64,000 nucleotides of DNA from an uncultured Saccharothrix sp. (GCA_965995405.1 CBHFOL010000007.1:174-64173); one strand, 5' to 3'. Counted from the stretch's first letter, positions 20,291 to 36,473 are shown. The notes: a model not told the origin generated them from the sequence alone. Translations and numbers: made by a program.

Positions 20291-22066
20291 TCACGACTCC
20301 TTCACTGCGTCAAGGCGAAATCCGGGCACCAGCAGGGCAAGTCGCGCCACCGTGCGCAGGTTCAGCACGTCGCGCAACGAACACGGCACCCCCGCCGCAC
20401 GCAGGCGGGAGGCGATCGCGGCGGCGGACAGGCTGTGCCCGCCGAGTTCGAGGAAGTCGCTGTCGGCCGTGACGGCTTCGGCGTCGCCGAGCACCGCGCG
20501 GAACACGTCCGCCACCAGTTCCTGCTCCGGCGACATCCGGTCCGCCGGCTCGACCGGGGGCGCGAACAACGCCTCCCGGTCGATCTTCCCGTTGTGGCCC
20601 ACCGGCATCTCCGCCACCGGCACCACGGCCGACGGCACGAGGTACCCGGGCAGCGCCTCCCGCAGCAGCTCCCGCACGCCGGTCACGTCGGCACCCGGAA
20701 CGGGCACGACGTAGGCCACCAGCCGCCGGTCGACACACGTGCCCTCCACCCGTACCACCGCCTGGCGCACCTGCGGCAGCCCGCGCAGCACGTGCTCGGT
20801 CTCCCCCGGCTCGACCCGGTGACCGCGGATCTTGACCTGGTCGTCCAACCGCCCCAGCCACTCCAGCCGGCCACCGGCACCGGCCCGGCACAGGTCCCCG
20901 GTCCGGTACCAGCCGTCCACGAACCGCTCGGCGGTCAGCTCCGGCCGGTTCAGGTAGCCCTCGGCCACGCACCGCCCGCCGATCAGCAGCTCACCCGGCG
21001 CGCCTTGGGGCACCGGGCGCAGCCGGTCGTCCACGATCCGCACGCGGGTGTTGCCGATGGGACGCCCGATCGACGGCGTGTCGCACTCGTCCAGCCGGCA
21101 CGCCGTGGCGAACACCGCGCACTCCGTCGGCCCGTACAGGTTCACGGCGGCCAACCCGGGCGTGGTGCGCAGCCGCGACCACATCTCCTGGCAGGCCGCC
21201 TCTCCGCCGACGAGCAGCAGCCCCGGCCGGGTGCCGGGTTCCAGCAGCCCGGCCTCGGCGAGCGCCAACAGGTGGGCGGGCACGGTCTCCACGACCGATA
21301 TCCGGCGTTCGGCGACGAACCGCACGTACTGTTCCGGGTCGGCGCGGACGTCGTCGGGCACCAGGTGCACCTCGTGCCCGCCGACCATCCACAGGAGAGG
21401 GTCGAACGACGCGTCGAACGCCAGCGGCAGCCCGTGCGCCACCCTGGCACCGCGCCCCACGATCGGGAAGTACCGCGCCACCAGTTCCCGGTAGAGGTTG
21501 ACCAGGCTCGCGTTGCCGACGACCACGCCCTTCGGCGTGCCGGTGGAACCGGAGGTGTAGATGACGTACGCGGGCCCGTCCACCGCCTGGTACAGCGGAC
21601 GGTCGCTGTAGCCGTCGAGATCGGCCTGCCGGTTCTCGACGTCGAGCACCATCCGCACGCCGACGCCGACCTGCGCGGGCACGTCGGTCAGCACCACCAC
21701 GGGATCGGCGTCTGCCAGGACGACCTTGGCCCGGGCCGGCGGCAGGTCCGGGTCGACCGGCAGGTACGCGGCCCCGGTCTTCGCGACCGCGAGCAGCCCG
21801 ACCATCGCCCGCACGGAACGGGTCAGCGCGCACGCCACGATCGTGCCCGGCCCCGCACCGGCTTCCCGCAGCGCGCGCCCGAGCCGGTTGCTCCACCGGT
21901 CGAGCTCCCGGAACGTCCACTTGCGACCGTCCGCGACCAGGGCCACGTCCGACGGCCACACCTCGGCGTGCCGCTCGAACAGCTCCCACCAGCCGACCGG
22001 AGGAACCGCCCGCACCGGACCCGCCACCACCGCCTGCCGACCGGCGGCACCCATCCTGGAATCCAT
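20291..22066 (-). CDS. Stand-alone NRPS adenylation-PCP didomain
   Basis: YVIYTSGSTGTPKG, FDAS, NLYGPTE, YRTGDL, GRLDDQVKIRGHRVE, NGKIDR, PCP LGGHSL. Confidence 0.93.
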   Translation of the reverse strand: MDSRMGAAGRQAVVAGPVRAVPPVGWWELFERHAEVWPSDVALVADGRKWTFRELDRWSNRLGRALREAGAGPGTIVACALTRSVRAMVGLLAVAKTGAAYLPVDPDLPPARAKVVLADADPVVVLTDVPAQVGVGVRMVLDVENRQADLDGYSDRPLYQAVDGPAYVIYTSGSTGTPKGVVVGNASLVNLYRELVARYFPIVGRGARVAHGLPLAFDASFDPLLWMVGGHEVHLVPDDVRADPEQYVRFVAERRISVVETVPAHLLALAEAGLLEPGTRPGLLLVGGEAACQEMWSRLRTTPGLAAVNLYGPTECAVFATACRLDECDTPSIGRPIGNTRVRIVDDRLRPVPQGAPGELLIGGRCVAEGYLNRPELTAERFVDGWYRTGDLCRAGAGGRLEWLGRLDDQVKIRGHRVEPGETEHVLRGLPQVRQAVVRVEGTCVDRRLVAYVVPVPGADVTGVRELLREALPGYLVPSAVVPVAEMPVGHNGKIDREALFAPPVEPADRMSPEQELVADVFRAVLGDAEAVTADSDFLELGGHSLSAAAIASRLRAAGVPCSLRDVLNLRTVARLALLVPGFRLDAVKES

Positions 22067-22739
22067 CACGATTTCTCCTGACCCGACAGCACAGCGCGGA
22101 ATCGTCGCTCCACCCGTGGTGCGGCGCGCGGCGACTCGTCGAGCACCGGACCCACAAAAAGGCAGAGAATCCCGATCCGACCGCAACGCGTGCGGCCGAC
22201 AATTATTCGCCTTACCAGCTCAGCACACCCGATGAATGGCCGGCACCGGACGTACCACTCCACCCGGACCACACACCCGACGGTATTGGCCGACCGTGCG
22301 AACCGTGCTGAAAGCTTAAGTTCACCCGACCGGATGCAACGTAACGGTTGTATTGCAAACTATGGCGGACTCCGAGCCACCCGCCCTGACCAGGCACGGA
22401 CCCGCCAGAATGGCCTGAAGAATCTTCACAGGAGACCCTGGAAACCGAATTACCACCACTCCTGACAGTGTTATCCGCGGGCTCGTCCGCGCTTTTCACT
22501 CGAATAGGCGACCCGGCGGACCGGGAGCTTCGCCGGCAGACGCACTTAGGGTGTCTGCCATCCCTTTGGCGCACCCGGTTGTCCGGTCCGGGTGAGGTCG
22601 GCGCGGTCCCGCCGGTGCGCGGAGCGAGTGATAACCGTGCGTGAACGGCTGAACTCCGTCGCGGACATTGGTTTCACGCCGGCGGTGGCGCGACGATCGG
22701 ACGCCCGGCGTCGGGCCGGCCGTCCGGGCTGCGGCGCAC

Positions 22740-22933
22740 CGATCAGCGCGGTCGACGCGGACCGGGCGAAGTTCACGCCGCCCGTGCCCTGGCGACCGCT
22801 GTTGGACGCGCGGGGCGACCGCACCATCTGGCCCATCCAGTTCGCGCCGGCCGGGATGAACGCGCACATCAACCACGACCTGGCGCCGGCGGGCAAGCTG
22901 CTGCTCACCCCCGTGGTGCCGCCGCCCGAGTGA
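22740..22933 (+). pseudogene. DUF5995-like gene remnant (internally deleted)
   Basis: WRPLLDARGDRTIWPIQFAPAGMNAHINHDL joined directly to a C-terminal-like GKLLLTP; no plausible start; 5' limit approximate. Confidence 0.6.
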
Positions 22934-22953
22934 CGTCAGCCGGCCGTGTGACG

Positions 22954-23631
22954 TCAGGCAGTGTTCGTGACGTCGGATGTTCGCGCAGCGGCGAGGCTGA
23001 GCAGGCCGCAGCCGTAGGACTTGGCCCGGCCGATGCCGCTGACCAGCGCGTCCGCCAGCGCCGTCGGGTCGGTGACGATCAGGTGGCCGTCGAACCGCAC
23101 GGGTTCCACGGTGATCTTCCGGCGGTCCTTCCGCCCGGTCAGGGTCGGTACACCCGTCGGGGTGACGTCCGGTCGGCCGCGCCGGTCGGTGGGGATGACG
23201 AAGCCGTGCCGCTCGCCTTTCCCGACCAGCCACTCGATTTGCCGGTCCGGCCGCCGATGCGCGACCCGGCGCGCGACGCCCTGTTCGTCGCGGACACAAC
23301 GGGTCGGGTTGGCGAGCAATCGGAAAGCGAACTTCCGGCCCGGCGCGATGGCGTCGAGAACCGGTTGCAGGGACCGGACTTCGGCCGGGCGCGTCAAACG
23401 GTCGGCGGGAAGTCCGGTCCAGTCCGGCGTGGTGCGGCTTTGCACATACTGCACGCAGCCGCCGTCGAATGCGTCGATACGCCACAGCACGCCGTGCGCC
23501 TGGCGAAAAGTCTCGGTGTCGGACAGTTCCGGGTAGGCCGACATGACCGTGCGGTGCATGTCGTGCACGTCGGCCGCGTCACGGCGAAACGTGTGGGAGC
23601 GCGTGTTGACGGTGAGTTTGCTCAGGAACAC
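22954..23631 (-). CDS. cas6e: Type I-E crRNA endoribonuclease Cas6e
   Basis: DVHDMHRTVM, VLWRID, VQSRTTPDW, FRLLANPT, GIGRAKSYGCGLL G-loop. Confidence 0.95.
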   Translation of the reverse strand: MFLSKLTVNTRSHTFRRDAADVHDMHRTVMSAYPELSDTETFRQAHGVLWRIDAFDGGCVQYVQSRTTPDWTGLPADRLTRPAEVRSLQPVLDAIAPGRKFAFRLLANPTRCVRDEQGVARRVAHRRPDRQIEWLVGKGERHGFVIPTDRRGRPDVTPTGVPTLTGRKDRRKITVEPVRFDGHLIVTDPTALADALVSGIGRAKSYGCGLLSLAAARTSDVTNTA

Positions 23632-24305
23632 GTGTTCTCCCCGCGGTCTTCCGGGCGCACCTCGCCGATGCGGACCGACCGGGAACCGAAACGCCGGTTT
23701 CCCCGGGCGAAGCTGATGGGCTGATCGTGCCGGACCTGTGCCAACGGGTAGTCCGGCGCACATTCCACGACCGTCCGCAGCGGAACGGCGGTCCGGGCGT
23801 TCGTCTCCAGCCACGGGTGCTTGCGCAGCACCTCGTCCGTCGACCGTCCGGTCGGCCGCGCGTCGGGCCCCAGGAGCGGACGGGCGGGCACGTATGCCTT
23901 GCGCCCCAAGGACAAGGGCCAGTGCGGCTGCCGCACCGCCGATGCCACCCGGCCCAGCAGTCGGCCGTCTCCCGCCAGCACCACCAGGAACAGCGCGTCG
24001 GCCAGGTAGTAGCGCTCGCTGACGACGGTCCGGCGTCCGGTGCCCTGGGTGGTGGGCACGTTCTGCGTGGTCTGGAAATCGCGCTCCAGCACGCCTTCCC
24101 GGTCCACCCGCACCGCCAGCCGCAACCCGGCCAGTTCGGCGATCGCGAGTTCGTCGTCCCGCTCGACGCCGAGCGCCGCCGCCAGCAGCCCGACGACACC
24201 GGACTTGGTCGGCTCGGCCATGGTGTCCCGGACGATGCCACGGGACCGGATCCCCCACGACTGCATCGGCGCGTCGAAGCACAGCGCCAGCGTCCCGTCG
24301 GTCAT
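23622..24305 (-). CDS. cas5: Type I-E Cascade subunit Cas5
   Basis: DAPMQSWG, PTKSGVVGLLAAALG, VRVDREG, RYYLADA, LSLGRKAYVP. Confidence 0.95.
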   Translation of the reverse strand: MTDGTLALCFDAPMQSWGIRSRGIVRDTMAEPTKSGVVGLLAAALGVERDDELAIAELAGLRLAVRVDREGVLERDFQTTQNVPTTQGTGRRTVVSERYYLADALFLVVLAGDGRLLGRVASAVRQPHWPLSLGRKAYVPARPLLGPDARPTGRSTDEVLRKHPWLETNARTAVPLRTVVECAPDYPLAQVRHDQPISFARGNRRFGSRSVRIGEVRPEDRGENTCS

Positions 24306-24312
24306 CGGGCGA

Positions 24313-25428
24313 TCACCTCGTGGCGGCCAGGACCGTGTCGGCGAAGTCGTCGACACTCGACGCCTCCGTCACCCCGTCCGGGCAGGACAGCCCGCCGGTC
24401 ACCGACGCGGCGGTGGCGGTGCGGATGTCCTTGCCGCCGTAGAAGTCCTTTGTCTTCCCGAAGTGCGCCATGAGCAGCCTGGTCGAGTTGGCCATGAGGT
24501 CGTCGCGCACGGGGTTGAGGAACGCGTTGGCCAGGTTCCACGCGCCGCGGTCGCGGACGACACCGAGCAGGGTGTCCGGCATGGTGCGGGCCGCCGTCGA
24601 GTTCTGCATCCCGCCGGGCACGGCGTTGATGAACGCGTACAGCCAGGCGCGCGCCGCCCGTTCGGCGAGGTCCACATCGCCGCGCAGGTTCTTCGCCAGC
24701 TGGGTGAGGTCGACGTTGGCATAGCGGTAGTAGCAGGCGGAGTTGAAGTCGACGGTGCCGATCATGTCCGCGCCCGACTCGTCGTGGGGCTTGAGGTCGT
24801 CCACGGCGGTGTAGAAGTCGAACTCGGTGACCACGGTGTGCGTGGAGATCGCGTGCGCGACCTGGGAGGCGGCGTCGACGTTGAGGTCCTTGTTGTCGGC
24901 GATCATCCGGCCGAAGAGGGCGACGTCGGCGGCCCGGCCCGCGTCCAGGATCCGGCTCGCCTCGGCCTGGCCGGCCTTGTCCAGCTTGACCTTCGCCTGT
25001 TTGCCGGCGGTCTTGGCGGACGCGAGCCGTTCCAGGGCTTCCCAGTGGTCCAGGCAATGCCGGGCCAGGGTTTCGATGGATTCCTGGCTGACGAACAACA
25101 GGTACTCGGTCAGCCCCTTGTCCTGGTCGACGCCGAAACCGAGTTGCCGGATGGCCTCGATCACGACGGCCCGCGCCTGATCGCGGTCCTTCCTGCGGTC
25201 GACCAGGATCTCGACCACGTTGTCCAGCAACCGTTTGGTGCGGACACCGCTCTCGGACTTGTCCAGCCCGTAGTCGTTGAACAGCAGCCGCGCCGAACGT
25301 TTGATGCTCTGGCTGGAGATCCGGCCGCGCACGTGACCGCCGAAGGTGGCCGTCTTGGGCTGACCGGTGTCGTCCCGGTTCAGGTTGCTGACGGGGAACG
25401 ACTGGAGCAGGTGGAGTTCGATGATCAC
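24313..25428 (-). CDS. cas7: Type I-E Cascade backbone Cas7
   Basis: IELHLLQSFPVSNLNRDDTGQPK, RISSQSIKR, ALFGRM, VAHAISTH, DFYTAVDD, YYRYANV. Confidence 0.96.
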   Translation of the reverse strand: MIIELHLLQSFPVSNLNRDDTGQPKTATFGGHVRGRISSQSIKRSARLLFNDYGLDKSESGVRTKRLLDNVVEILVDRRKDRDQARAVVIEAIRQLGFGVDQDKGLTEYLLFVSQESIETLARHCLDHWEALERLASAKTAGKQAKVKLDKAGQAEASRILDAGRAADVALFGRMIADNKDLNVDAASQVAHAISTHTVVTEFDFYTAVDDLKPHDESGADMIGTVDFNSACYYRYANVDLTQLAKNLRGDVDLAERAARAWLYAFINAVPGGMQNSTAARTMPDTLLGVVRDRGAWNLANAFLNPVRDDLMANSTRLLMAHFGKTKDFYGGKDIRTATAASVTGGLSCPDGVTEASSVDDFADTVLAATR

Positions 25429-26027
25429 GTGGTTGGCTCCGGTGGCTCGGTGGTGTCGACCGGTTCCTCGTCGCGTTCGGCCGAGACCGGCATGTGGTAT
25501 TCGCGGGCCCACTTCAGGCGGATCCGACCCGCCCGGTCGCCGCGAGGGTCGTTTCCCAGCAGCACCACCAGGTCGTCCAACAGGGCGTGGTAGTCGACGG
25601 GCACGTCGTGCGCGGACAGCAGGCGGACGGCTTGCCGGAGGTGGTGCGGCAGGGCGGGCCCGTCCCTGGCGAGCAGCTGGGTGAACCGGCGGTGGACGGA
25701 GGTGTTGTCGAGCTTCTTGGCGAGTCGACCGAAGGAAGCGCCCAGCGTGCGTGGCCCTGGTCCCGACTTCCAGACCTTCGGGTGCAGGGCGTACAGGCCG
25801 CCGACGAGGAGCCAGGTGTCCTGTTCCGCCTCGTTGTCCGGCGGGTCGGCGCGGAACACGATCTCGTACGCCTCGACCTGCCTGCCGTCGGTGAAACTGT
25901 TGCGCAGCACGGCAAGTTGGCGACGCGACTGGGCCGCGACGGCCGGGTTGGCCGAACCTCGCGCGCCGTCGAGACCGTACAGGCGTTTGACGTAGTCGTT
26001 GCGCCGCTTGACGATCGGGTCAGTCAC
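25425..26027 (-). CDS. cas11: Type I-E small subunit Cas11 (Cse2/CasB)
   Basis: Position between cas8e and cas7; GLYALHP, RRFTQLL, HLRQAVRLL, VDYHALLDDL, WAREYH. Confidence 0.9.
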   Translation of the reverse strand: MTDPIVKRRNDYVKRLYGLDGARGSANPAVAAQSRRQLAVLRNSFTDGRQVEAYEIVFRADPPDNEAEQDTWLLVGGLYALHPKVWKSGPGPRTLGASFGRLAKKLDNTSVHRRFTQLLARDGPALPHHLRQAVRLLSAHDVPVDYHALLDDLVVLLGNDPRGDRAGRIRLKWAREYHMPVSAERDEEPVDTTEPPEPTT

Positions 26028-27636
26028 CCGGCTCCTCCGTTCCGGTGGAATAGGCGTGGGTATCGGCCAGGAACCTGTGCCGCGCGGTGGCGAGACGACT
26101 CCGGAACCGGCCCATGTGTTTGCCCAGCACCATCAGCTTGGACGCCTCCGTGGACGCGCCGGTGGCCCACCTGTCCGCCGTCGTCCGGGCGAGTTCTTCG
26201 ACGGTGTGCCCCCACCTTCGGGCGACGGGGTGTTCCGACCGGCCGTTGTTCCTCACCTCGCCGAGGCGGACCAGGAATTCACCGAACGGTCCGGGCAGCT
26301 GTGGCCAGTAGCCGAGGTCTATGTCTGCCAGGACCTTGGCCCTCAGCTCACGGCGGTATTCGGTCTGTAGGGCGCGCAGTGCCGAACCCGCTTCGTCGGC
26401 CAGGGTGATCGCGCAGCCCAGGAGCGCGCCGAGGCTCTCGTCCTTCGCCCGCACCAGCGCGACCGGCGCGGGTACCTCCTCCTCCAGCCACGCTTCCACC
26501 ACCGACGCCTTGGAGTCGAGTTGCTGTCCGAAGACGCGCAAGGTGTAGACCGTGTCGGCGGGCAGGTGCTCCGCCAGCTGTGCGATCTGGTCGAGCGCCG
26601 GCGGACGTTGCCGGGTCTTCTGCTCTTCCCAGAGGTCGACGAGGAGCAGTTCGACGCTGTGCCGCCAGATGCCACGGACTTGACGCAGCCGCACGGGCAG
26701 CAGGGGAACGTCCCGCTTGGGTTTGCCCTTGGTGTCCCGGGGAATCCGGAAGGCCGCCATCTTCTCCTCGTCGGAGAGCCTGACGTCCAGCCGGGTGCCC
26801 GGGGTGAGCACGACTCCGTCGACCATCGGAGGGCTGCTCGTGCGGTCGACGGAGAGCAGGATGCGCCTCGACGGCCAGGTCAGCAGATCGGTCCAGCCGC
26901 GCGCCGTGCGTTTGTCGGGAGTCGGGGGCGGGGCCGCCCTTTCCCAGGCCGGGGCGTCGGCGACCGTGGTCATGGCCGGCTTTTCGAGTTCCGGCTCGTA
27001 CACCAGGGCGTTGAGCAGCAAGGTCTCCTTGAGGTTCTTACCTTCCACAAGCACGATGCCCAACGAGTTGCCGGGCGCTTTCTCGGACGATTTGTCCTTC
27101 TGGTACGGGGTCTTCATGCCGCCGGGGTCGAAGGCTTGGGCGGTGACCAGCCACCGGGCCGCTTCCGCGGGGCTGAGCAGCAGACGGTCGCTCGACGTCG
27201 TGTGGTCGAACAACGTGACGTTGTTGCCGACAGCCCGATACGGCACGAGTTTGCCCGGTGAGGAAGGTGCCAGGGTGGACAGACCCGGGCATTGCAGAAA
27301 CGGCCGTTCGGGGTGGAACAGGTCGAACCTATCCGGGTGCCGGTCCAGGTACTGGCGTAACGGTTCGGCCGGAAGTCGGCCGTCCTGCCACAACTCCACC
27401 CACGCGGTTTCGGTCGACGGGCCGTAGACCCGGTGGAACAAGGCGATGACCAGCCGGTGCAGCGCCGCCGTCATCGTCGGCGCTTCCGCCGCGATCCGCC
27501 GGAATTCGTGGGCCTGGCGAAGGAGGTCCGCCAGGTTGACCAGGTCCGGTTCACCGCTGAGCCGGACGACAGGTACCCACGGTTCCGCCGTGAGATCGAA
27601 GGACCGGGACAGTTCAGCGCCGTCAGGTGTGTTCAT
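26020..27636 (-). CDS. cas8e: Type I-E large subunit Cas8e (Cse1/CasA)
   Basis: FDLTAEPWVPV, LHRLVIAL, RFDLFHPERPFLQ, LFDH, AARWLV, NLKETLLLN, TWPSRRI. Confidence 0.94.
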   Translation of the reverse strand: MNTPDGAELSRSFDLTAEPWVPVVRLSGEPDLVNLADLLRQAHEFRRIAAEAPTMTAALHRLVIALFHRVYGPSTETAWVELWQDGRLPAEPLRQYLDRHPDRFDLFHPERPFLQCPGLSTLAPSSPGKLVPYRAVGNNVTLFDHTTSSDRLLLSPAEAARWLVTAQAFDPGGMKTPYQKDKSSEKAPGNSLGIVLVEGKNLKETLLLNALVYEPELEKPAMTTVADAPAWERAAPPPTPDKRTARGWTDLLTWPSRRILLSVDRTSSPPMVDGVVLTPGTRLDVRLSDEEKMAAFRIPRDTKGKPKRDVPLLPVRLRQVRGIWRHSVELLLVDLWEEQKTRQRPPALDQIAQLAEHLPADTVYTLRVFGQQLDSKASVVEAWLEEEVPAPVALVRAKDESLGALLGCAITLADEAGSALRALQTEYRRELRAKVLADIDLGYWPQLPGPFGEFLVRLGEVRNNGRSEHPVARRWGHTVEELARTTADRWATGASTEASKLMVLGKHMGRFRSRLATARHRFLADTHAYSTGTEEPGD

Positions 27637-29993
27637 GCTGTGCTGTACTTCTCCCGGGTGCGGCTGGAGTCCTTGCTGTTCCTGGTCAGTTCGTCCAGTC
27701 GGCTGACCGCGAGCGGTGCCGGGAGGTACATCAGACGGGCCTCGCGACCGGACGCCTCACGGGAGCGGGTCAGTTTCTCGTCGGCCGCCTGCCACGCCGT
27801 TTCCCAGCCCGGTGGGCAGGCGACTGCTTCCGGCGGCCCGTACAGCGCGTCGACCAACGTGGGCACTTCTCCGGGAAGTTCCAGCGACTTCCGGTCGCGC
27901 AGGAGAGCCCAGGTCCGCAGCACCGTCATCGGTGCGTAGACCTTGTCCAGGTAGCGGGGGAACTCCGGCCCCGCGTCGGTATCCGTGACGCCCGCGATGG
28001 CCAGGACGGGCGTGCCTCGGACGGCGTGCCGGTGCAGTCGTCCGGCGCGCTGGATCAACCGGTCCACCGGGGCGAGGTCGGTGAGCATCGCGTCGAAGTC
28101 GAGATCGAGGCCCCCTTCGAGTACCTGGGTGCCGATCACGATCGCCCGTGGTCGCGTCCCGCCGGGGCCGAAGGAGGTGCGGAGTTCCTCCTCCGCCTTT
28201 CGCCGGTCGGACGCGGTCAGCTTGCCGTGGATCATGATCAGCCGGGGCCGCTGCCGTGTCGGGAGGAGCGCGATCCGATCGGCCAGGGTGTCGTGGGTGG
28301 CGGTCACCCTGCCTCTGAGGTTGTGCATGACCACGGCGCAGCCGCCGTCCGCCACCCGGTCCAGCGCCCAGTCGGCGATCCCGTCGTCGGTGACCCGGGC
28401 GAGGACGAGCCTGCGACCGCTGTTCAGGTCGGAGAGGCCGGCCGGTTCGACCGCCGGCCGGCCGGTGCCCGCCACGGTGACCCTCGGGTAGTCGGCCGAC
28501 GCTTCGAGCCTCGGGACCTCCCTGGGCAGGCAGCCGAGGAGTCCGGACTGCCAGGCGGCCACCAGGTCCTGGCGGCGGGCGGCGGGCAGGGTGGCGGTGA
28601 GCAGGACGACGGACACGCCGAGTCTGCCGAGCCAGTTCAGGAGCCGGTCGAGCAGCGTCGACATGTAGGTCGCGTAGGCGTCGACCTCGTCCACCACCAG
28701 GACTTTGTTGGTCAACGCGGTCAGCCGCACGAAGCCGTGCCCCGATCGCAGCACGGCTTTGAGCGCCTGGTCGACCGTGCCGACGCCGATCGTCGCCAGC
28801 AGGCTCTTCTTCCGGGTGAACCACTCCTGCGCTTGGAGGTCGGAGTCGTCCTCGTCGTCCCGGCCGATGTCGGTGGGCGTGGTGGCGCGCTTGTCGAGGT
28901 GTTCCTTGGCGTTGGAGTGGATCAGGCTCACCGACACGCCGGCGTCATGGCCCTTCACCAGGGCTTCGAGTTCATCGAACAGTTGGTTGCCGGTGGCCTG
29001 GGTGGGCATGGCGACGTATGTGCCGACGAGCCCGAGGTTGCGGACGAGCGCCGCCGCCGCTTGGAGCGCGGCCTTGGTCTTCCCTTCGCCGGTCGGTGCC
29101 TCGATCACCACCAGCGTGGGTTCGTCGCGGTCGACGGTCATCCGTTCCACCACGGTCTGCACCGGTCGCGGTCGGTCGGGGAACAGTTCGGCGAACTGTC
29201 GGGGCGGCGTCCACGCGCGGAGGTCGAGTCGGTCGACGGCGTTGTCCGCCAGCTCGGCCAGTGTTCCGGCGTAGTGGCGGAGGTCGGTGGTGTCGGCGAA
29301 CGGGAAGTTCCCGGTGTCCGAGGCGATCCAGTCGCTGATGGTCGCCAGCGCGGCGAGCCCCACCGCTGCGGGGACGCTGACGTGCACGTCCGACCACGGC
29401 AACGTGCTCGGGTCGGGCAGGCCGCGCAGTTGTGCGATCTGCCGGACGAAGTCGCCGCGCCAACCCTGCCAGGTGGCCCGGCCGTGGTTGTTGACCTCCA
29501 GCCGTGCCTGCTGGAGTGCGGACGCGGCGGGAAAGTGCCCGTGATGGCCGCCGAGCGCGACCGCGAGCCAGTCGGCGCTCTGCGCGGGCGCTCCCCAGGA
29601 CAGCAGGAGTTCCTTGAGCTGCACGGCAGTCAGCACCCCGTGGGGCGTGTCGATCCGCCGCCCGATCCCTTCCCGTTTCCGCACCCGCCTGATGTCGGCC
29701 GCGGCCACTTCGCCGAACCGGGACACCGCGAGGTCGGCTTGGAGGCCCTGGAACGTCGGGGCGTACTTGCCCAGGTCGTGCAGGCCGCACAGGGTGGCGA
29801 TCCACGAATCCACCTGCCCGAGCGGGTGGAACGCCGTGCGTAACTCGTCCCGGCAGCGCGGCCCGATGAACAGGTCGAAGGCACGTTCCGCCACGGCTGC
29901 GGTATCGAGCACGTGACATGCCAGAGGGTGGCTCGACTCTCGTCGGGACTTTCCCCAAGGTGCCCAAGCCGGTGGGGTTTCGTTTTTCGTCAT
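27633..29993 (-). CDS. cas3: Cas3 HD nuclease-helicase (786 aa; DEVD variant; short C-terminus)
   Basis: HPLACHVLD, LHDLGK, GGHHG, SDWIAS, APTGEGKT, DEVD, TATLP, QRAGRLHRH. Confidence 0.93.
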   Translation of the reverse strand: MTKNETPPAWAPWGKSRRESSHPLACHVLDTAAVAERAFDLFIGPRCRDELRTAFHPLGQVDSWIATLCGLHDLGKYAPTFQGLQADLAVSRFGEVAAADIRRVRKREGIGRRIDTPHGVLTAVQLKELLLSWGAPAQSADWLAVALGGHHGHFPAASALQQARLEVNNHGRATWQGWRGDFVRQIAQLRGLPDPSTLPWSDVHVSVPAAVGLAALATISDWIASDTGNFPFADTTDLRHYAGTLAELADNAVDRLDLRAWTPPRQFAELFPDRPRPVQTVVERMTVDRDEPTLVVIEAPTGEGKTKAALQAAAALVRNLGLVGTYVAMPTQATGNQLFDELEALVKGHDAGVSVSLIHSNAKEHLDKRATTPTDIGRDDEDDSDLQAQEWFTRKKSLLATIGVGTVDQALKAVLRSGHGFVRLTALTNKVLVVDEVDAYATYMSTLLDRLLNWLGRLGVSVVLLTATLPAARRQDLVAAWQSGLLGCLPREVPRLEASADYPRVTVAGTGRPAVEPAGLSDLNSGRRLVLARVTDDGIADWALDRVADGGCAVVMHNLRGRVTATHDTLADRIALLPTRQRPRLIMIHGKLTASDRRKAEEELRTSFGPGGTRPRAIVIGTQVLEGGLDLDFDAMLTDLAPVDRLIQRAGRLHRHAVRGTPVLAIAGVTDTDAGPEFPRYLDKVYAPMTVLRTWALLRDRKSLELPGEVPTLVDALYGPPEAVACPPGWETAWQAADEKLTRSREASGREARLMYLPAPLAVSRLDELTRNSKDSSRTREKYSTA

Positions 29994-30152
29994 CGTCTCG
30001 CTGCATTGGGGACAATGGCGGGGAGCGTAGCGCAGCGAGCAGTCCGCAAATATCGGGTCACCACACGGCGGTTGTTGAGTCTGGTGTGGACAGTGCCGTA
30101 TACCAACGGTCCTATGCATACCGTTGGAGCCGCAATCCACCGGTCGGGTAAC

Positions 30153-30229
30153 GAAGTTTCCCCACGACCGGGAATTTCCCGCTCGCCACAGGGGTGGTCC
30201 ATGAGCTCCCCTTGGCGCGGGATTCATCG
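30153..30229 (+). CRISPR. Degenerate type I-E repeat-like motifs (possible mini-array/CRISPR-like RNA or eroded array); not a canonical array
   Basis: GAAGTTTCCCCACGACCGGGAATTTCCCG, 21-nt gap, GAGCTCCCCTTGGCGCGGGATTCATCG; both have a TCCC..GGGA stem and an 8-nt AT....CG tail. Confidence 0.35.
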
Positions 30230-30248
30230 AATGGAGCACGCAGGTTTG

Positions 30249-30264
30249 CATCGACTTCCGTCAA
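30249..30264. promoter_or_regulatory. Putative ArsR operator upstream of arsR
   Basis: ATCGA-CTTCCG-TCAAT; the same ATCGA-N6-TCNAT motif recurs before pstS and in the flavoprotein/ArsR-GNAT spacer. Confidence 0.55.
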
Positions 30265-30287
30265 TCCAGGCCCTACCCTCGGGGCCC

Positions 30288-30650
30288 ATGGCGAAGCTCC
30301 CGGGTGAACCGCGAGTCGACGGCGCACCGCTCGCGAGTCACCCGACCAGTTGCAGTTCGGCCGCGAACCCGCTGCCCGCCGAACAGGCCCGGTCGATCGC
30401 CGCCGTGTTCAAGGCCCTGTCGAGCCCCACTCGGGTCCGGGCGCTGTGGCTGCTGGAGGCCGGCGAACGGTGCGTCCACGATCTCGTGACGGGCCTCGAC
30501 GTCGCCCAACCGACCATGAGTCACCACTTGCGCGTGCTGGCCGAAGCCGGTCTGGTGCAAGGAGAACGGCGCGGGAACCGGGTCTGGTACGCGGTCGTGC
30601 CGGAGACCATGGCGGCCGTGCGCGGTCTGCTCGGCTGCGATTTCCGGTAA
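30288..30650 (+). CDS. ArsR/SmtB-family repressor
   Basis: VFKALSSPTRV, RCVHDL, QPTMSHHLRVL, ERRGNRVWY. Confidence 0.9.
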   Translation: MAKLPGEPRVDGAPLASHPTSCSSAANPLPAEQARSIAAVFKALSSPTRVRALWLLEAGERCVHDLVTGLDVAQPTMSHHLRVLAEAGLVQGERRGNRVWYAVVPETMAAVRGLLGCDFR

Positions 30651-30670
30651 CAGCACCACCCCTATGTAGG

Positions 30671-30742
30671 ATCGAGATTTTTCAATCCCAGGTCTCCTCG
30701 TCATGCCGCGTTCACCTGTCGTTTAGAACGAAATACTTCGAT
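30671..30742. promoter_or_regulatory. pstS control region: ArsR-like operators plus PHO-box-like direct repeat
   Basis: ATCGAGATTTTTCAAT (30671-30686); 11-bp units CGTCATGCCGC/GTTCACCTGTC (30699-30720); reverse-strand ATCGAAGTATTTCGTT near 30727-30742. Confidence 0.5.
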
Positions 30743-30789
30743 GCAAGAGTCCCGGGAACAGGTCCGGGCGTCGAGCAGGAGGCACGTCA

Positions 30790-31764
30790 GTGACCATCCG
30801 CCAGGTGAAGCGTGCGCACATGATCGCGGTCGGGGCCGTCGCCGTCCTGACCCTGGCCGCCTGTGGTGGCGGCCGGAACGACGGCGGCGCGGCGCAGGGC
30901 GGTGTGAAGCTGTCCGGCCCGGTCGTGGTCGACGGGTCCAGCACGGTCGAACCGCTGTCCGCCGCGGCGGGCGAGTTGTTCATGGGGGCCAACCCCGATG
31001 TCAGGGTCACCGTCGGCACGTCCGGGACCGGCGGCGGCTTCAAGAAGTTCTGCGCGGGCGAGACCGACATCTCCGACGCGTCGCGTCCGATCAAGGACGA
31101 GGAGAAGAAGCTGTGCTCGGACAAGAGCATCAGCTTCACCGAGATCCAGGTGGCCAACGACGCACTGACCGTGGTGGTGAACAAGGACAACAGCTGGGTC
31201 GACTGTCTGACCGTGGCGCAGCTGAAGAAGATCTGGGAGCCGGAGTCGAAGGTCAAGACCTGGAAGGACGTCGACCCGTCGTACCCGGACGAGCCGCTGG
31301 GCCTGTACGGGGCGGGCGCGGACTCGGGCACGTTCGACTACTTCACGGGCGCGGTCAACGGCAAGGAAGGCGCGAGCCGCAAGGACTACAACCCGTCCGA
31401 GGACGACAACATCACCGTCCAGGGCGTGTCCGGCGCGAAGGGTGCGTTGGGGTACTTCGGTTTCTCCTACTTCGAGGAGAACACGGCCAAGCTCAAGGCG
31501 CTCAAGATCGACAGTGGCAAGGGGTGCGTCGAGCCGTCGGTGAAAACCGCGCAGGACGGCACCTACAAGCCGTTGGCCCGGCCGCTGTTCATCTACCCGT
31601 CCGATACCGCGCTGAAGAAGACCCAGGTCGAGGGATTCGTGGAGTACTACCTGGAGCACAACGACGAAATCGTGCAGGCGGCGCGGTTCGTGCCGCTGAC
31701 CGAGGCGCAGAAGACCACGGCGAAGGACGCCCTGACGCAGCTCAGGGCCAAGGCGGGCAAGTGA
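30790..31764 (+). CDS. pstS: Phosphate ABC transporter substrate-binding lipoprotein
   Basis: Lipobox LAAC, DGSSTV, SGTGGGFKKFC, ASRPIK, DSGTFDYF, RPLFIY. Confidence 0.95.
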   Translation: MTIRQVKRAHMIAVGAVAVLTLAACGGGRNDGGAAQGGVKLSGPVVVDGSSTVEPLSAAAGELFMGANPDVRVTVGTSGTGGGFKKFCAGETDISDASRPIKDEEKKLCSDKSISFTEIQVANDALTVVVNKDNSWVDCLTVAQLKKIWEPESKVKTWKDVDPSYPDEPLGLYGAGADSGTFDYFTGAVNGKEGASRKDYNPSEDDNITVQGVSGAKGALGYFGFSYFEENTAKLKALKIDSGKGCVEPSVKTAQDGTYKPLARPLFIYPSDTALKKTQVEGFVEYYLEHNDEIVQAARFVPLTEAQKTTAKDALTQLRAKAGK

Positions 31765-32744
31765 CCGGTGGTCGTCGCACGGGTGGTCTTCCGGACGCGG
31801 GAGACCACCCGGCCCGTTGGCGTGGCACGGCCGTCGACCTGACGTCGCAACGTTCCCGGATCGGCGAGAAGGCCGTCCGGCTCGGGCTGATGTCGGCCGC
31901 GCTGCTGTCGGTCGCGGTCACCGTCGGCATCGTGCTGTCCCTGCTCACCCCACTGGTCAGCTTCTTCGAGCACGTCGGGGTGGACGACTTCCTGTTCGGC
32001 ACGGAGTGGACGGCGGCGTTCGGCGACAAGTTCGGCTGGGACGACAAGTCCTGGGGCGTGCTGCCACTGGTGGTGTCCACGCTGATGATCACGCTGATCG
32101 CGTTGCTGGTCGCGGTGCCGCTCGGGTTGGGCGCGGCGATCTACCTCAGCGAGTACGCGTCCGGCACGCTGCGCAAGATCCTCAAGCCGGTGCTGGAGGT
32201 GCTGGCCGGCATTCCGACGGTGGTGTACGGGTTCCTGGCGTTGACGATCGTGACGCCGATCCTGGGCACGGTGTTCGACTTCGACGGGATCTACACGAAC
32301 CTGTCGCCGGGGATCGTGATGGGCTTCATGATCGTGCCGACGGTCGCGTCGTTGAGCGAGGACGCCATGTCGGCGGTGCCGTTGGCGTTGCGGCAGGGCT
32401 CGTATGCGTTGGGGGCCAACAGGATGAAGACGACGCTGCGGGTGGTGTTCCCGGCCGCGCTGTCCGGGATCGTGGCGGCCATCGTGCTCGCCATCTCGCG
32501 GGCCGTGGGCGAGACGATGATCGTGACCATCGCAGCGGGCAGCAAGGCGCACCTGTCGTTCGACCCGCGCGAAGGAGCGCAGACGATGACCGGGTTCATC
32601 GCGCAGATCGCGTCCGGCGACGCACCGCAGGGCAGTCCCGTCTACTACTCGCTGTTCGCGGTGGGCGCGCTGCTGTTCGTGCTGACCCTGCTGATCAACG
32701 TGGTCAGCATCCGGCTGGTCCGCAAGTACCGGCAGGCATACTGA
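31761..32744 (+). CDS. pstC: Phosphate ABC permease PstC
   Basis: LAGIPTVVYG, SLSEDAMSAVP, SRAVGETMIV; start assumed at GTG overlapping pstS stop. Confidence 0.93.
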   Translation: MTGGRRTGGLPDAGDHPARWRGTAVDLTSQRSRIGEKAVRLGLMSAALLSVAVTVGIVLSLLTPLVSFFEHVGVDDFLFGTEWTAAFGDKFGWDDKSWGVLPLVVSTLMITLIALLVAVPLGLGAAIYLSEYASGTLRKILKPVLEVLAGIPTVVYGFLALTIVTPILGTVFDFDGIYTNLSPGIVMGFMIVPTVASLSEDAMSAVPLALRQGSYALGANRMKTTLRVVFPAALSGIVAAIVLAISRAVGETMIVTIAAGSKAHLSFDPREGAQTMTGFIAQIASGDAPQGSPVYYSLFAVGALLFVLTLLINVVSIRLVRKYRQAY

Positions 32745-33628
32745 TGAGCACCGCGACCGTCACTTCCGGCCTGCGCGGCGGGCGACGCGACATGGGGCCG
32801 AGGCTGTTCGCCGTCACGCTGTGGGCGTGCCTGGCGATCATCTGCGTTTTCCTGTTCTTCATCCTCGCCATCATCGTCTACAAAGGACTGGCCAGGTTCG
32901 ATCCGGGTCTGGTCACCGCGCAGCCGTCGAAGATCCGACCGGAGACCGCCGGTGTCGCGTCGGCGCTGTACGGCACGCTGTGGGTCAGCGCGCTGACCGC
33001 GTTCATCGCACTGCCGCTGGGGATCGCGGCGGCGGTGTACCTGGAGGAGTACGCCGACCCGCGCTCGTGGTGGAACCGGCTGATCGAGCTGAACATCCAG
33101 AACCTCGCCGCCGTGCCGACCGTGATCTACGGCATCCTGACGCTGGCGTTCGTGGTGCGCGGCCCGGTGTCCGTCGGCGGTGTGGTGCTCGCGGGCGGGG
33201 TCGCGTTGTCGTTGCTGATCCTGCCGGTGGTGATCATCACGACGCGCGAGGCGCTGCGAGCCGTACCTGAAGAGATCCGGTCCGGGTCGCTGGCGCTCGG
33301 GGCGACGCTGTGGCAGACGACGTGGCGGCAGACGTTGCCCGCCGCGGTGCCGGGTATCGCGACCGGCTCGATCCTGGCGCTGTCGCGGGCGATCGGCGAG
33401 GCCGCACCACTGATCCTGGTCGGTGCCACGACGTTCGTGACGTTCAACCCCGACGGGATCTTCTCCCGCTACACCACGCTCCCGGTGCAGATCTACAACC
33501 TGGTGCCGCAGGACCGCCAGGAGTTCCGCGACCTCGCCTACGCCGCGATCCTGCTGCTGATCATCGTCCTGCTGGCCATGAACGCGCTCGCGATCTGGCT
33601 GCGCAACCACTACCAGCGCCGGTGGTGA
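32744..33628 (+). CDS. pstA: Phosphate ABC permease PstA
   Basis: [34 protein letters not shown]; TGATG coupling. Confidence 0.94.
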
Positions 33629-33651
33629 GGCGCGTCGTGAAGGAGTTCCCG

Positions 33652-34533
33652 GTGACCAGAGCGAAGCAGGAACCCTTGGCCCACAACGACGACCGGCCCG
33701 CGACGCACGTCGGCGTGCGACGGGAGAACACCCTGCGGCCCGTGGAGGGCGAACCCGACGGCGTGATCACGTTGCAGGACCTGGAGGTCTTCTACGGCGA
33801 CTTCCGCGCCGTCACCGACGTCGACATGACCTTCGGCAGCCGCGAGATCACCGCCCTGATCGGCCCGTCCGGCTGCGGCAAGTCCACCGTGCTGCGCTGC
33901 CTGAACCGGATGAACGACCTCGTGCCCGGCGCACGCGTCGAAGGCTCGGTCACCTACCACGGAACCGACATCTACGACCCCGAGGTCGACGTCATCGAGG
34001 TACGGCGGCGGATCGGCATGGTGTTCCAGAAACCCAACCCGTTCCCCAAGTCCATCTACGACAACGTCGCCTACGGACCACGCGTCACCGGCATGAAGGT
34101 CGACAGCATGGACACCGTAGTCGAACACGCCCTGCGCGCCGCCGCCCTGTGGGACGAGGTCAAGGACAAGCTCAAACAGAACGCCTTCGGCCTGTCCGGC
34201 GGCCAACAGCAGCGGCTGTGCATCGCCCGTGCCATCGCAACTTCGCCCGAGGTGATCCTGATGGACGAGCCGTGCTCCGCGCTGGACCCGATCGCCACCG
34301 CCAAGATCGAGGACCTGATGGTCGGACTCGCCGCCGAGTTCACCATCATCATCGTCACCCACAACATGCAGCAGGCCGCCCGCGTCTCCCAACGCACCGG
34401 GTTCTTCACCGCCGAAGCCGACGAGAAGGGCCACCGCACCGGGCGGCTGGTCGAGTTCGCCACCACCGAGCACATCTTCGGCAACCCGTCCGACGCCCGG
34501 ACCGAGGCGTACATCACGGGCAGGTTCGGCTGA
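33652..34533 (+). CDS. pstB: Phosphate ABC ATPase PstB
   Basis: [54 protein letters not shown]. Confidence 0.97.
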
Positions 34534-34716
34534 CGTGGCACGCTCGCCGGTTCGGGCGTGGGGCCCGGCTGTGGGCGTGCCGGTGGATCCAGGTGGTCCG
34601 CGGTCGGGGAATCCGGTTCTCCGTACCGGCTTGTTCACCGGACGTTCAGACCCGCTGATGAATATGCGACGATCGGATCGACAGATCCCGAACCAGCGAG
34701 GGGGGCAGCGCCACAC

Positions 34717-35043
34717 ATGGCGGACGACCGCGACCCGGCCACGGCGGCGCACCTCTTCAAAGCCCTCGCCGACCCCGTACGGGTACAGCTGCTGGCGCTG
34801 GTGCGTCGGGCACCGGTCGGCGAGGCGTGCTTCTGCGACCTCGCCGACGAGTTCGACATGCCACAGTCCACGCTGAGCCACCACCTCAAGATCCTGGTCA
34901 ACGCGGGCGTGCTGAGCCGGGAACGCCGGGGCACCTGGAGCTGGTACCGCGTCGAACACGCCACTCTGGACACCATGGAACGGATGCTGCGGCCCGGCGG
35001 CCCGTTGCGTGACGAACCGGTCACCCAGGAGCAGGGCGGCTGA
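34717..35043 (+). CDS. ArsR/SmtB-family repressor
   Basis: LFKALADPVRV, EACFCDL (CxC), QSTLSHHLK, RRGTWSWY. Confidence 0.9.
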   Translation: MADDRDPATAAHLFKALADPVRVQLLALVRRAPVGEACFCDLADEFDMPQSTLSHHLKILVNAGVLSRERRGTWSWYRVEHATLDTMERMLRPGGPLRDEPVTQEQGG

Positions 35044-35168
35044 AACCGCCGCAGGGCCGGGCACGAGTCCCGACAGGACAGTCGTGACCGACGCTGCGGC
35101 GGGGATGGCGACCGTGCGGTGATCCGGGTCGGGCAACGTGGCCCTCGACGGTGCCGGGCTGTCCGGTC

Positions 35169-36473
35169 TCAGGGGCGCGCACTCGGGGCGGACAGGGTCA
35201 GTTCCGTGGTGGCCGGTGCGGCGCAGCAGCCGCCCGAGGCTTCGGGTGCGGTGTCGAAGTCGCCGGAGCCGCCGCATACGCCGGTCTCGGGGAGGACCAG
35301 TTCGACCCGTGCGGCGGAGTCGTGGTCGCCGGCGATCTCGGCGACGACGCTGCGGACCTGTTCGTAGCCGGTGAGGGTGAGGAAGGTGGGGGCGCGTCCG
35401 TAGCTCTTCATCCCGACCAGGTAGACGCCGGGCTCGGGGTGGCGCAGTTCATTCGCGCCGTGCGGGTACACCGTGCCGCAGGAGTGGACGTTCGGGTCGA
35501 TCAGTGGCGCGAGCCGCACCGGGGCCTGCAACACCGGGTCCAGGTCCAGGCGGACCTCGGACAGCCAGGAGAGATCGGGGCGGAACCCGGTCAGCGCGAC
35601 GACCTCGTCCACCGGGTCCAGGCGGTGCCCGTCCTGCGACTCCAGCACCAGACCGGCGTCGGTCACCTCCACCGACGCGGTGCGGAACCCCGTGACGACC
35701 TCCACGTGACCGGCCCGTGCCGCGGCCTTCGCCCGCAGTCCCAGCGCCCCGCGTGCCGGGAGTTGGTCGGCCTCGCCACCGCCGAACACGTTGCCGACCG
35801 CGCCCCTTCGCAGCAGCCACGTCACGTGCGTACCCGGATGCGTCCCGGCCAGACCGGCGAGCGCCACCAGCGCCGTCAGCGCGGAATGCCCACTGCCCGC
35901 GACCGCGATCCGCCTGCCCGCGTACCGACCCGACTCGGTCTCCACGTCCGGCACCCGGTAGGCGATCCGGTCCGCCGCCGCGAGTTCTCCCAGCGCGGGC
36001 AGTCCGTCCCCGCCCAGCGGGTTGGGCGACCCCCACGTGCCCGACGCGTCGATCACCGCCCGCGCCTCGATCCGTTCCCCGGCCAGGTGCACGGTCAACG
36101 GCTCGCTGTCCCGCCCGGCGTCCACCACGCGGTCACGACCACGCCGTGCCACGCCGACGACCCGCGCGTCGTACCGGATGTGGTCGGCCAGCACGCGCGA
36201 CAGTGGCTCCAGGTACCGGGACACCCACTCCGCGCCGGTCGGGTAGCCCTCCGGGGCCTGCCAGCCGGTCGGCTCCAGCAGCCTGCGCGCGGCCGGGTCG
36301 ACCAGCTCCGACCACCGCGAGAACAGGCGCACGTGACGCCACTGCGCGACCGCCGCGCCCGCCCGTGACCCGGCTTCCAGCACCAACGGCCGGATACCCC
36401 GTTCCAGCAGGTGCGCCGCCGCGGCCAACCCCGCCGGACCCGCACCGACCACGACCACCGGAAGCCCGCTCAC
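35169..36473 (-). CDS. Arsenic-island FAD/NAD(P)-dependent oxidoreductase (ArsO-like flavin monooxygenase)
   Basis: GAGPAG, GSGHSA, HSCGTV, GMKSYGRAPTFL, C-terminal VCGG..GCC. Confidence 0.8.
   Translation of the reverse strand: MSGLPVVVVGAGPAGLAAAAHLLERGIRPLVLEAGSRAGAAVAQWRHVRLFSRWSELVDPAARRLLEPTGWQAPEGYPTGAEWVSRYLEPLSRVLADHIRYDARVVGVARRGRDRVVDAGRDSEPLTVHLAGERIEARAVIDASGTWGSPNPLGGDGLPALGELAAADRIAYRVPDVETESGRYAGRRIAVAGSGHSALTALVALAGLAGTHPGTHVTWLLRRGAVGNVFGGGEADQLPARGALGLRAKAAARAGHVEVVTGFRTASVEVTDAGLVLESQDGHRLDPVDEVVALTGFRPDLSWLSEVRLDLDPVLQAPVRLAPLIDPNVHSCGTVYPHGANELRHPEPGVYLVGMKSYGRAPTFLTLTGYEQVRSVVAEIAGDHDSAARVELVLPETGVCGGSGDFDTAPEASGGCCAAPATTELTLSAPSARP

Follow-up and report, generated by a model that had tools for sequence, protein, structure and literature searches.

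A type I-E CRISPR-Cas operon of an uncultured Saccharothrix without cas1-cas2 or a neighbouring array, and its split-Cas3 relatives

How does a type I-E CRISPR-Cas effector obtain its guides when neither the adaptation genes nor an array lie beside it? The question is raised by a cas operon at positions 22954-29993 of a 64,000-nucleotide stretch of DNA from an uncultured Saccharothrix sp. (GCA_965995405.1, CBHFOL010000007.1:174-64173), here called the window, which makes up nearly the entire 64.3-kb contig C7 (C7:174-64173) of a draft genome (8.39 Mb, 573 contigs, ~71% G+C, 92.85% complete). A preliminary description of the window reported six tightly coupled, apparently intact genes for a complete Cascade plus Cas3 with no cas1/cas2 and no canonical array, and proposed that the operon uses arrays in trans or has been repurposed for RNA-guided regulation. 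Our analysis favours, with somewhat better than even confidence, an interference-only type I-E effector that uses CRISPR RNAs (crRNAs) from three distant arrays, with a frozen spacer repertoire and a probably weakened Cas3 arm.

The cas genes were called with NCBIfam models, and every hit exceeded its curated cut-off. In the order of transcription, the operon contains:

27633-29993, minus strand: cas3 core, HD nuclease plus superfamily 2 (SF2) helicase, 786 aa (cas3_core 176.8 bits, cas3_HD 78 bits)
27630-27640, minus strand: cas3/cse1 junction, where the cas3 stop codon and the cse1 start codon share ATGA (sequence inspected)
26020-27636, minus strand: cse1/cas8e, large Cascade subunit, 538 aa (TIGR02547 197.9 bits; Pfam CRISPR_Cse1 354.5 bits)
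25425-26027, minus strand: cse2/cas11, small Cascade subunit, 200 aa (TIGR02548 82.5 bits)
24313-25428, minus strand: cas7e, Cascade backbone, 371 aa (TIGR01869 303.6 bits)
23622-24305, minus strand: cas5e, 227 aa (TIGR01868 148.3 bits)
22954-23640, minus strand: cas6e, repeat-cleaving endoribonuclease, 228 aa (TIGR01907 78.9 bits)

All five type I-E signature genes (cse1/cas8e, cse2/cas11, cas7e, cas5e and cas6e) are present. The genes overlap by 8 nt (cse1/cse2), 4 nt (cse2/cas7) and 19 nt (cas5/cas6e), all other junctions overlap or are at most 7 nt apart, and the ~7 kb of cas coding sequence has no frameshift or stop and retains its translational coupling. In an alignment with Thermus thermophilus Cse3 (2y8w), the catalytic His of Cas6e, located in ...MHRT..., is conserved. 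The six proteins matched contig C7 alone in tblastn searches and represent the sole I-E cas set of the assembly. Thus, the reported six tightly coupled and intact type I-E genes were borne out by the profile hits and the overlapping junctions. The word "complete" is too strong, because the C-terminal domain of Cas3 is missing.

No CRISPR array was found in the 64-kb window by Tandem Repeats Finder, by a direct-repeat search or when the I-E repeat of the same genome was used for approximate matching, and inspection of the flanking genes, together with genome-wide profile and tblastn searches, revealed no cas1/cas2 3' of cas6e in the window. The absence of cas1/cas2 was therefore as first described; a canonical array is likewise absent, but a decayed leader and repeat remnant is present at ~30150-30200 upstream of cas3. 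Across the whole draft genome, hidden Markov models detected neither I-E Cas1 (TIGR03638) nor I-E Cas2 (PF09707), and tblastn with Cas1 and Cas2 of a canonical I-E locus from the same genus gave no match.

The assembly was scanned for arrays by k-mer chains and by approximate repeat search, which identified three I-E arrays on other contigs:

C270:10164-10888: I-E array, 12 identical repeats GTCTTCCCCGCGCGAGCGGGGGTGTTCC; continues past the contig end
C342:7589-7738: I-E array, 3 repeats ending GTGGTCC, the last one degenerate
C14:20739-20949: I-E array, 4 repeats with a CACA loop

Together they contain 19 repeats of 28/29 nt and 16 complete spacers at 61-bp spacing, and the repeats form a hairpin with a 7-bp stem (-13 to -14 kcal/mol). 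The ~55 nt preceding each first repeat contain a conserved block (...AACCGAAnCAAnAC...GTAAnC...CCAG...ACGAAGT) that is common to the leaders of cas-adjacent arrays in relatives. With conserved leaders and hairpin repeats at 61-bp spacing, all three are true arrays with leaders of their own and are available in trans. Since the assembly has a single I-E cas set, the proposed use of arrays in trans is supported. The preliminary description had named cas1/cas2 and matching arrays elsewhere, together with normal interference activity, as speaking against its own reading; the matching arrays were found, and I-E cas1/cas2 were not.

The only Cas1 of the genome belongs to a type I-C locus (C42:1029-8291) with the unusual order cas5c-cas8c-cas7c-cas3-cas1-cas2, followed by five copies of a 37-nt repeat (four spacers). 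It lacks about the first 100 residues, covering model positions 104-339 of 340. This protein was rejected as a supplier for the I-E arrays on account of its type I-C locus, the 37-nt repeats and the N-terminal truncation. No cas4 was seen at the C42 locus, and a gene for a tyrosine recombinase is located nearby.

The operon was compared with 45 species genomes of the genus and four named genomes of other genera. Cas6e homologues in the 45 species have a bimodal distribution, with 59-64% identity in 13 genomes, including that of the window, and 32-41% identity at 20 loci. We refer to the first group as clade A, an adaptation-less split-Cas3 I-E sublineage defined in this analysis, and to the second, the canonical I-E clade, as clade B. 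The Cas proteins of the window group with clade A, sharing 59-64% (Cas6e) and 52-57% (Cas3) identity within the genus. An I-E cas1 directly beside cas6e was found at 17 of the 20 clade B loci, in contrast to none of the 13 clade A loci. Outside the window's own genome, clade A comprises 12 species of the genus, seven of them with closed genomes, where the loci are located 0.6-3.9 Mb from the record ends; adjacent cas1 occurs in none of the 12. In eight clade A genomes, I-E Cas1 is lacking altogether; of the seven tested for Cas1 of any type, five proved to have none (G010, G013, G018, G027 and G063, including four closed genomes).

Four clade A genomes are nevertheless rich in I-E repeats when compared with genomes lacking I-E cas genes, which have 0-4. 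There are 38 repeats in G013, 16 in G018, 61 in G027 and 70 in G035, distributed over many arrays, some at the operon and many of them megabases away. Three of these genomes (G013, G018 and G027) are among those with no Cas1 of any type and still carry 16-61 dispersed I-E repeats. The same six genes without cas1/cas2 are also present, with 46-74% identity to the window proteins, in Actinocrispum wychmicini, Micromonospora sp. HM5-17, 'Nocardia' sp. NRRL S-836 and Phytohabitans kaempferiae, whose Cas7 proteins are 62-74% identical to that of the window. An array directly follows cas6e in G027, G013, G035 and Actinocrispum (88 bp after cas6e in the latter). Because the clade A pattern recurs across the genus and in four other genera, both the lack of cas1-cas2 and the reliance on distant arrays are lineage traits, rather than an assembly artefact or a peculiarity of one genome.

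The two clades are not separated by their arrays. The repeat adjoining the canonical clade B operon in G033 is identical to the C270 repeat, and therefore clades A and B share repeats and leaders. More generally, the repeats of the three Saccharothrix arrays are identical or nearly identical to those beside both clade A and clade B operons in relatives, and in 'Nocardia' sp. NRRL S-836 a clade-B-type cas2 and an array abut the clade A operon. The assembly containing the window has no clade B cas gene of any kind.

The second distinctive feature of the lineage concerns Cas3. The window protein has 786 aa, compared with open frames of 794-847 aa in clade A relatives and 945-991 aa in clade B. 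It aligns only with residues 40-795 of the 949 residues of the Thermobaculum terrenum Cas3 (4q2c), and its Pfam matches include Cas3_HD, DEAD and Cas3-like_C_2, but not Cas3_C. In the four loci from other genera, ~400 bp between cas3 and cse1 encode a Cas3 C-terminal-domain protein of 120-145 aa, which scores 33.7-42.9 bits with Cas3_C (PF18395, cut-off 27) and matches 4q2c residues 858-947. This domain is a separate open reading frame (ORF) in two of these loci and an in-frame fusion to the Cse1 N-terminus in the other two (Actinocrispum, L030:7436-7790; Micromonospora sp. HM5-17, L031:7330-7730), with a further possible fusion in G035 (C1:3557489-3557809). Other clade A loci have a free-standing Cas3_C ORF, the start of which overlaps the cas3 stop. 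Within the genus, each of the nine clade A loci with a cas3 has Cas3_C after it (the ORFs were inspected directly in G002 and G013), and Cas3_C is present in 13 of 13 relatives with cas3, being missing in the window's locus alone. Searches with PF18395 and tblastn found no Cas3_C in the whole genome of the window, including its Cas3 and Cse1. According to the review account in PMC5965380, the C-terminal domain closes the channel for single-stranded DNA and contacts Cse1 (Huo et al. 2014, Gong et al. 2014), and Thermobifida fusca Cas3 without it binds Cascade more weakly (Huo et al. 2014).

The remaining core of Cas3 has its HD motifs, Walker A and motifs III and VI intact. Motif II, otherwise DE(V/I)H, is changed from DEVH to DEVD and motif V from EQ(G/S)LD to EGGLD, substitutions that are found in none of four relatives or 4q2c. 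Unique changes at otherwise invariant sites amount to 6.2% in the window Cas3; of the four relatives, three have 5.9-9.5% and the most divergent (L033) has 24%. None of the six window proteins has an excess of unique changes at conserved sites over the sister lineages. This argues for continued selection on the window Cas proteins, and relaxed selection on Cas3 or Cascade was rejected on the same ground.

Both flanks of the operon bear traces of change:

30120-30200, plus strand: array vestige with a leader-end motif, a half repeat and a decayed repeat, reading away from cas3
22592-22933, plus strand: DUF5995 gene fragment that runs towards the cas6e stop and covers only positions 64-115 of the 225 of the Pfam PF19458 profile

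The vestige lies in the 295-bp gap between cas3 and arsR and was recognised by alignment to leaders and repeats of the genome's own arrays and of relatives' arrays upstream of cas3. Its leader-end motif (...GTAACGAAGT) ends at ~30163 and is followed by a half repeat, TTCCCCACGACCGG, and then by the decayed repeat GAATTTCCCGCTCGCCACAGGGGTGGTCC (30172-30200), which is identical at 21 of 28 positions with one indel; its local score of 28 was reached by 3 of 18276 sampled windows. In G013 and G027, the arrays upstream of cas3 have the same position and orientation. Folding of the decayed repeat did not give the repeat hairpin, and no second repeat was found at spacer distance (32 nt). We read this element as the vestige of a lost array. 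On the other side of the operon, four relatives have arrays 90-700 bp past cas6e, and the window has the truncated DUF5995 gene at the same place; to judge from this correspondence, the fragment marks a rearrangement where relatives have an array.

In the mechanism that we favour, Cas6e would cleave the RNA transcribed from the three arrays with leaders that lie on other contigs, and Cascade (Cse1, Cse2, Cas7, Cas5 and Cas6e) would load those crRNAs and bind matching invader DNA. The spacer repertoire would be static because the genome has no I-E Cas1-Cas2, and new spacers would enter only via a canonical, often plasmid-borne, I-E system with the same repeat and leader. The operon would itself have lost its flanking arrays, leaving the decayed leader and repeat upstream of cas3 and a truncated foreign gene at cas6e. 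Target degradation is probably weakened, because the gene for the C-terminal domain has been deleted and motifs II and V are uniquely substituted. The locus may be on its way to binding-only action or to decay.

For clade A in general, we infer that spacers are supplied in trans by canonical I-E systems, because repeats and leaders are identical, loci are composite or co-resident, and canonical I-E operons are abundant on Streptomyces plasmids (118 plasmid records). It is conceivable, and we propose it only tentatively, that clade A is an undescribed, long-lived actinomycete I-E sublineage that has permanently shed cas1-cas2 and split its Cas3, and that serves as a chromosomal interference-only module, borrowing adaptation in trans from mobile I-E systems via dispersed arrays with interchangeable repeats and leaders. 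If so, whether the Cas3 C-terminal domain is dispensable would be tested naturally by the window copy, which lacks the gene for it.

Several observations weigh against an active interference-only effector. No spacer matched any phage, plasmid or viral contig searched, so that the spacers give no positive proof for an immune role: the full C270 array used as a query in phage and plasmid collections matched only other arrays via their repeats, the concatenated spacers had no plasmid hit and their phage hits (E ~8) were at chance level, and the three leader-proximal spacers had no match in IMG/VR when every sixth base was left free. Array size is modest at 12+, 4 and 3 repeats; three relatives have 38-70 repeats and a fourth has 16. 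The draft state of the assembly (573 contigs, 92.85% complete) leaves some chance that a piece is missing. Finally, with the loss of the C-terminal domain and the DEVD and EGGLD changes, Cas3 may no longer be working.

The alternative that best withstands the evidence is that the operon is a decaying relic, cut from its arrays by rearrangement, losing its Cas3 function and contributing nothing to the cell, with intact frames that reflect recency. Both flanking arrays are gone with the decayed repeat as the only remainder, a gene fragment abuts cas6e, the Cas3 C-terminal-domain gene has been deleted in this genome alone, two conserved helicase motifs carry unique substitutions, and the remaining arrays are small. 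Sister loci are further gone: three clade A loci (G010:C1:2986179, G018:C1:3018249 and G025:C1:398461) are Cascade-only, with no clade A cas3 in the genome and no array within 10 kb, and clade A cas6e has an internal stop codon in G033 and G063. Against a relic stand ~7 kb of coding sequence that is free of frameshifts and stops and has kept its translational coupling, six proteins none of which shows excess unique substitutions at conserved sites, and a C270 array in which all 12 repeats are identical and the conserved leader is intact. We consider decay rather unlikely as the present state of the operon.

Regulation of host genes appears improbable. Here, Cascade and a weakened Cas3 would be guided to host promoters by spacers or by the degenerate upstream repeat, in the manner of CreR/CreA. 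The compromised Cas3 arm, the degenerate leader and repeat in the cas3 promoter region and the existence of sister loci without cas3 are compatible with such a role, as is an 11-nt seed match with AAG at window position ~54853 (54850-54885) for the 32 nt that follow the degenerate repeat. However, this lone match lies inside a coding region and ~0.08 hits with that protospacer-adjacent motif are expected by chance, so that the pseudo-spacer was judged a chance match and rejected as a regulator; the decayed repeat also lacks the Cas6e hairpin and has no second repeat 32 nt further on. Repurposing for RNA-guided regulation, the other proposal of the preliminary description, found no support because the host genome contains no full or nearly full match to any of the 16 spacers, the only hits being chance-level partial ones of up to 25 nt.

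It is very unlikely that the operon belongs to an ordinary complete I-E system whose cas1-cas2, and perhaps further arrays, fall in the unassembled ~7% of the genome. The fragmented assembly and the C270 array reaching its contig end leave room for such pieces, but cas1-cas2 normally come right after cas6e, and here this place is occupied on the same contig by the gene fragment and a gene similar to those of non-ribosomal peptide synthetases (NRPS). Moreover, adjacent cas1 is found in no clade A locus of the 12 other species, seven of them with closed genomes, and the assembly is devoid of clade B cas genes. Least credible is a remnant of a I-E CRISPR-associated transposon (CAST): the missing cas1-cas2, the intact HD site of Cas3 and a sole local array trace upstream of cas3 recall such elements (bioRxiv 10.1101/2024.11.13.623437), but no tnsB/tnsC follows cas6e here or in the relatives examined (L017, L030), arrays directly follow cas6e in four clade A relatives (those named above), and the clade A loci of closed chromosomes are deep inside them and not at their ends. 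In a genome-wide search for TnsB with the Mu-transposase model PF09299, the control genomes were also silent.

The favoured interference-only effector shares much with canonical I-E systems (Escherichia coli K-12; T. fusca and T. terrenum, 4qqw, 6c66 and 4q2c; Streptomyces avermitilis, PMC4762764), including the gene order cas3-cse1-cse2-cas7-cas5-cas6e, a 28/29-nt hairpin repeat, 32/33-nt spacers, a Cas3 with HD nuclease and SF2 helicase, and the catalytic His of Cas6e. It differs in that the window and its clade have no cas1e-cas2e, the window has no adjacent array, and the Cas3 C-terminal domain is outside Cas3, as a separate gene in clade A and absent in the window. The Cas6e identity of only 32-41% also sets it apart from the canonical clade of its own genus. 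Distant arrays in trans and array-less cas clusters are already documented in general: in complete genomes ~23% of arrays are distant and 88% of cas clusters adjoin an array (PMC7145637). The survey of Bernheim et al. (2020, PMC7145637) likewise includes cas clusters more than 20 kb from subtype-matching arrays, but in the window the cas cluster itself is both array-less and adaptation-less, as a lineage trait.

Two adaptation-less I-E variants are known in Streptomycetaceae, I-E CAST with tnsBC (bioRxiv 10.1101/2024.11.13.623437) and, as summarised in PMC12231136, a Cas3-less STAND-NTPase variant; the window locus fails the defining features of both. I-E CAST, or TnsBC-associated I-E (Faure et al. 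2019; bioRxiv 10.1101/2024.11.13.623437), is similarly a I-E effector with an intact Cas3 nuclease site, no Cas1-Cas2 and a Cas clade of its own. By its description, it is set apart from the window operon, which has no tnsB/tnsC and has closed relatives that are not telomeric and carry arrays on both sides or dispersed. The STAND variant of Streptomyces (Shmakov et al. 2018, in the summary of PMC12231136) is also a derived I-E without an adaptation module, in contrast to which the window has cas3, no STAND NTPase neighbour, and flanks of ArsR/Pst and biosynthetic genes; the Cas7 of its plasmid example NZ_CP108204.1 is 28.5% identical to that of the window. In the Streptomyces Cas3-Cse1 (casA-cas3) fusions (PMC11560957), the Cas3 C-terminal part is physically linked to Cse1, as in Actinocrispum and Micromonospora sp. 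HM5-17. However, clade A detaches or fuses the C-terminal domain only, not the whole Cas3, and the window has lost the domain. We found no published account of a cas1/2-less, Cas3-bearing I-E clade with a separate Cas3_C gene; as our coverage of the literature is incomplete, novelty is claimed with caution.

Low-identity plasmid hits were considered as I-E CAST and rejected, being the STAND variant, a TPR/helicase variant, a Cascade-only locus and canonical loci. One of them, on a Streptomyces cellulosae plasmid (NZ_CP109454.1, 156337-175461; L038), encodes a TPR protein, a DEAD/DEAH helicase, a long Cse1 without a separate Cse2, Cas7 (28% identical to that of the window), Cas5 and Cas6e, and has no cas3, cas1 or cas2. 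Another, on the 772-kb linear plasmid of Kitasatospora sp. NBC_00070 (NZ_CP108248.1, 685043-702020; L039), consists of cse1-cse2-cas7-cas5-cas6e only, with no annotated cas3, cas1 or cas2 nearby.

Thus, an array-less I-E operon without cas1/2 can be the standard state of a whole Cas lineage and not an assembly gap or a one-off deletion. The persistence of clade A in genomes that lack any Cas1 and yet have many arrays raises the question of how these arrays are filled and kept. Given that repeats and leaders are identical, the spacers would seem to come from canonical I-E systems on mobile elements. The separate, sometimes Cse1-fused, Cas3_C gene represents a natural dissection of the Cas3-Cascade interface, of which the window is a natural deletion mutant. 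Surveys seeded with Cas1 (e.g. PMC11560957) miss such loci. Genome editing or silencing in actinomycetes could in addition draw on clade A loci as candidate endogenous tools.

The surroundings of the operon broadly agree with the biosynthetic cluster and arsenic island between which it was first placed. Beyond the DUF5995 fragment, a spacer of lower G+C is followed by genes for an NRPS-like adenylation-carrier protein (A-T didomain), a halogenase and a lyase, so that a carrier-protein/halogenase/lyase cluster is indeed present. The other side (30288-36473) carries, divergent from cas3, genes for an ArsR-family regulator, a PstS-like binding protein, two permeases and an ABC (ATP-binding cassette) ATPase, beyond which a Pyr_redox_3 flavoprotein is encoded on the opposite strand. 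This arrangement fits a putative Pst-like transporter under ArsR control. The G+C content is 0.66-0.70 over the cas operon and the Pst-like genes (22000-34000) and 0.71-0.75 on both sides, which is compatible with horizontal acquisition of the block.

At the exact meeting point of the operon and the DUF5995 fragment, three copies of the palindrome TGACGTCA lie around the cas6e stop (22921-22957), within an 18-bp tandem duplication (GCCGCCCGAGTGACGTCA); these palindromes may be a junction or a putative binding site. Elsewhere in the window, a 135-bp tandem repeat (43094-43404; 2.3 copies, 74% identity) is located in apparent coding sequence.

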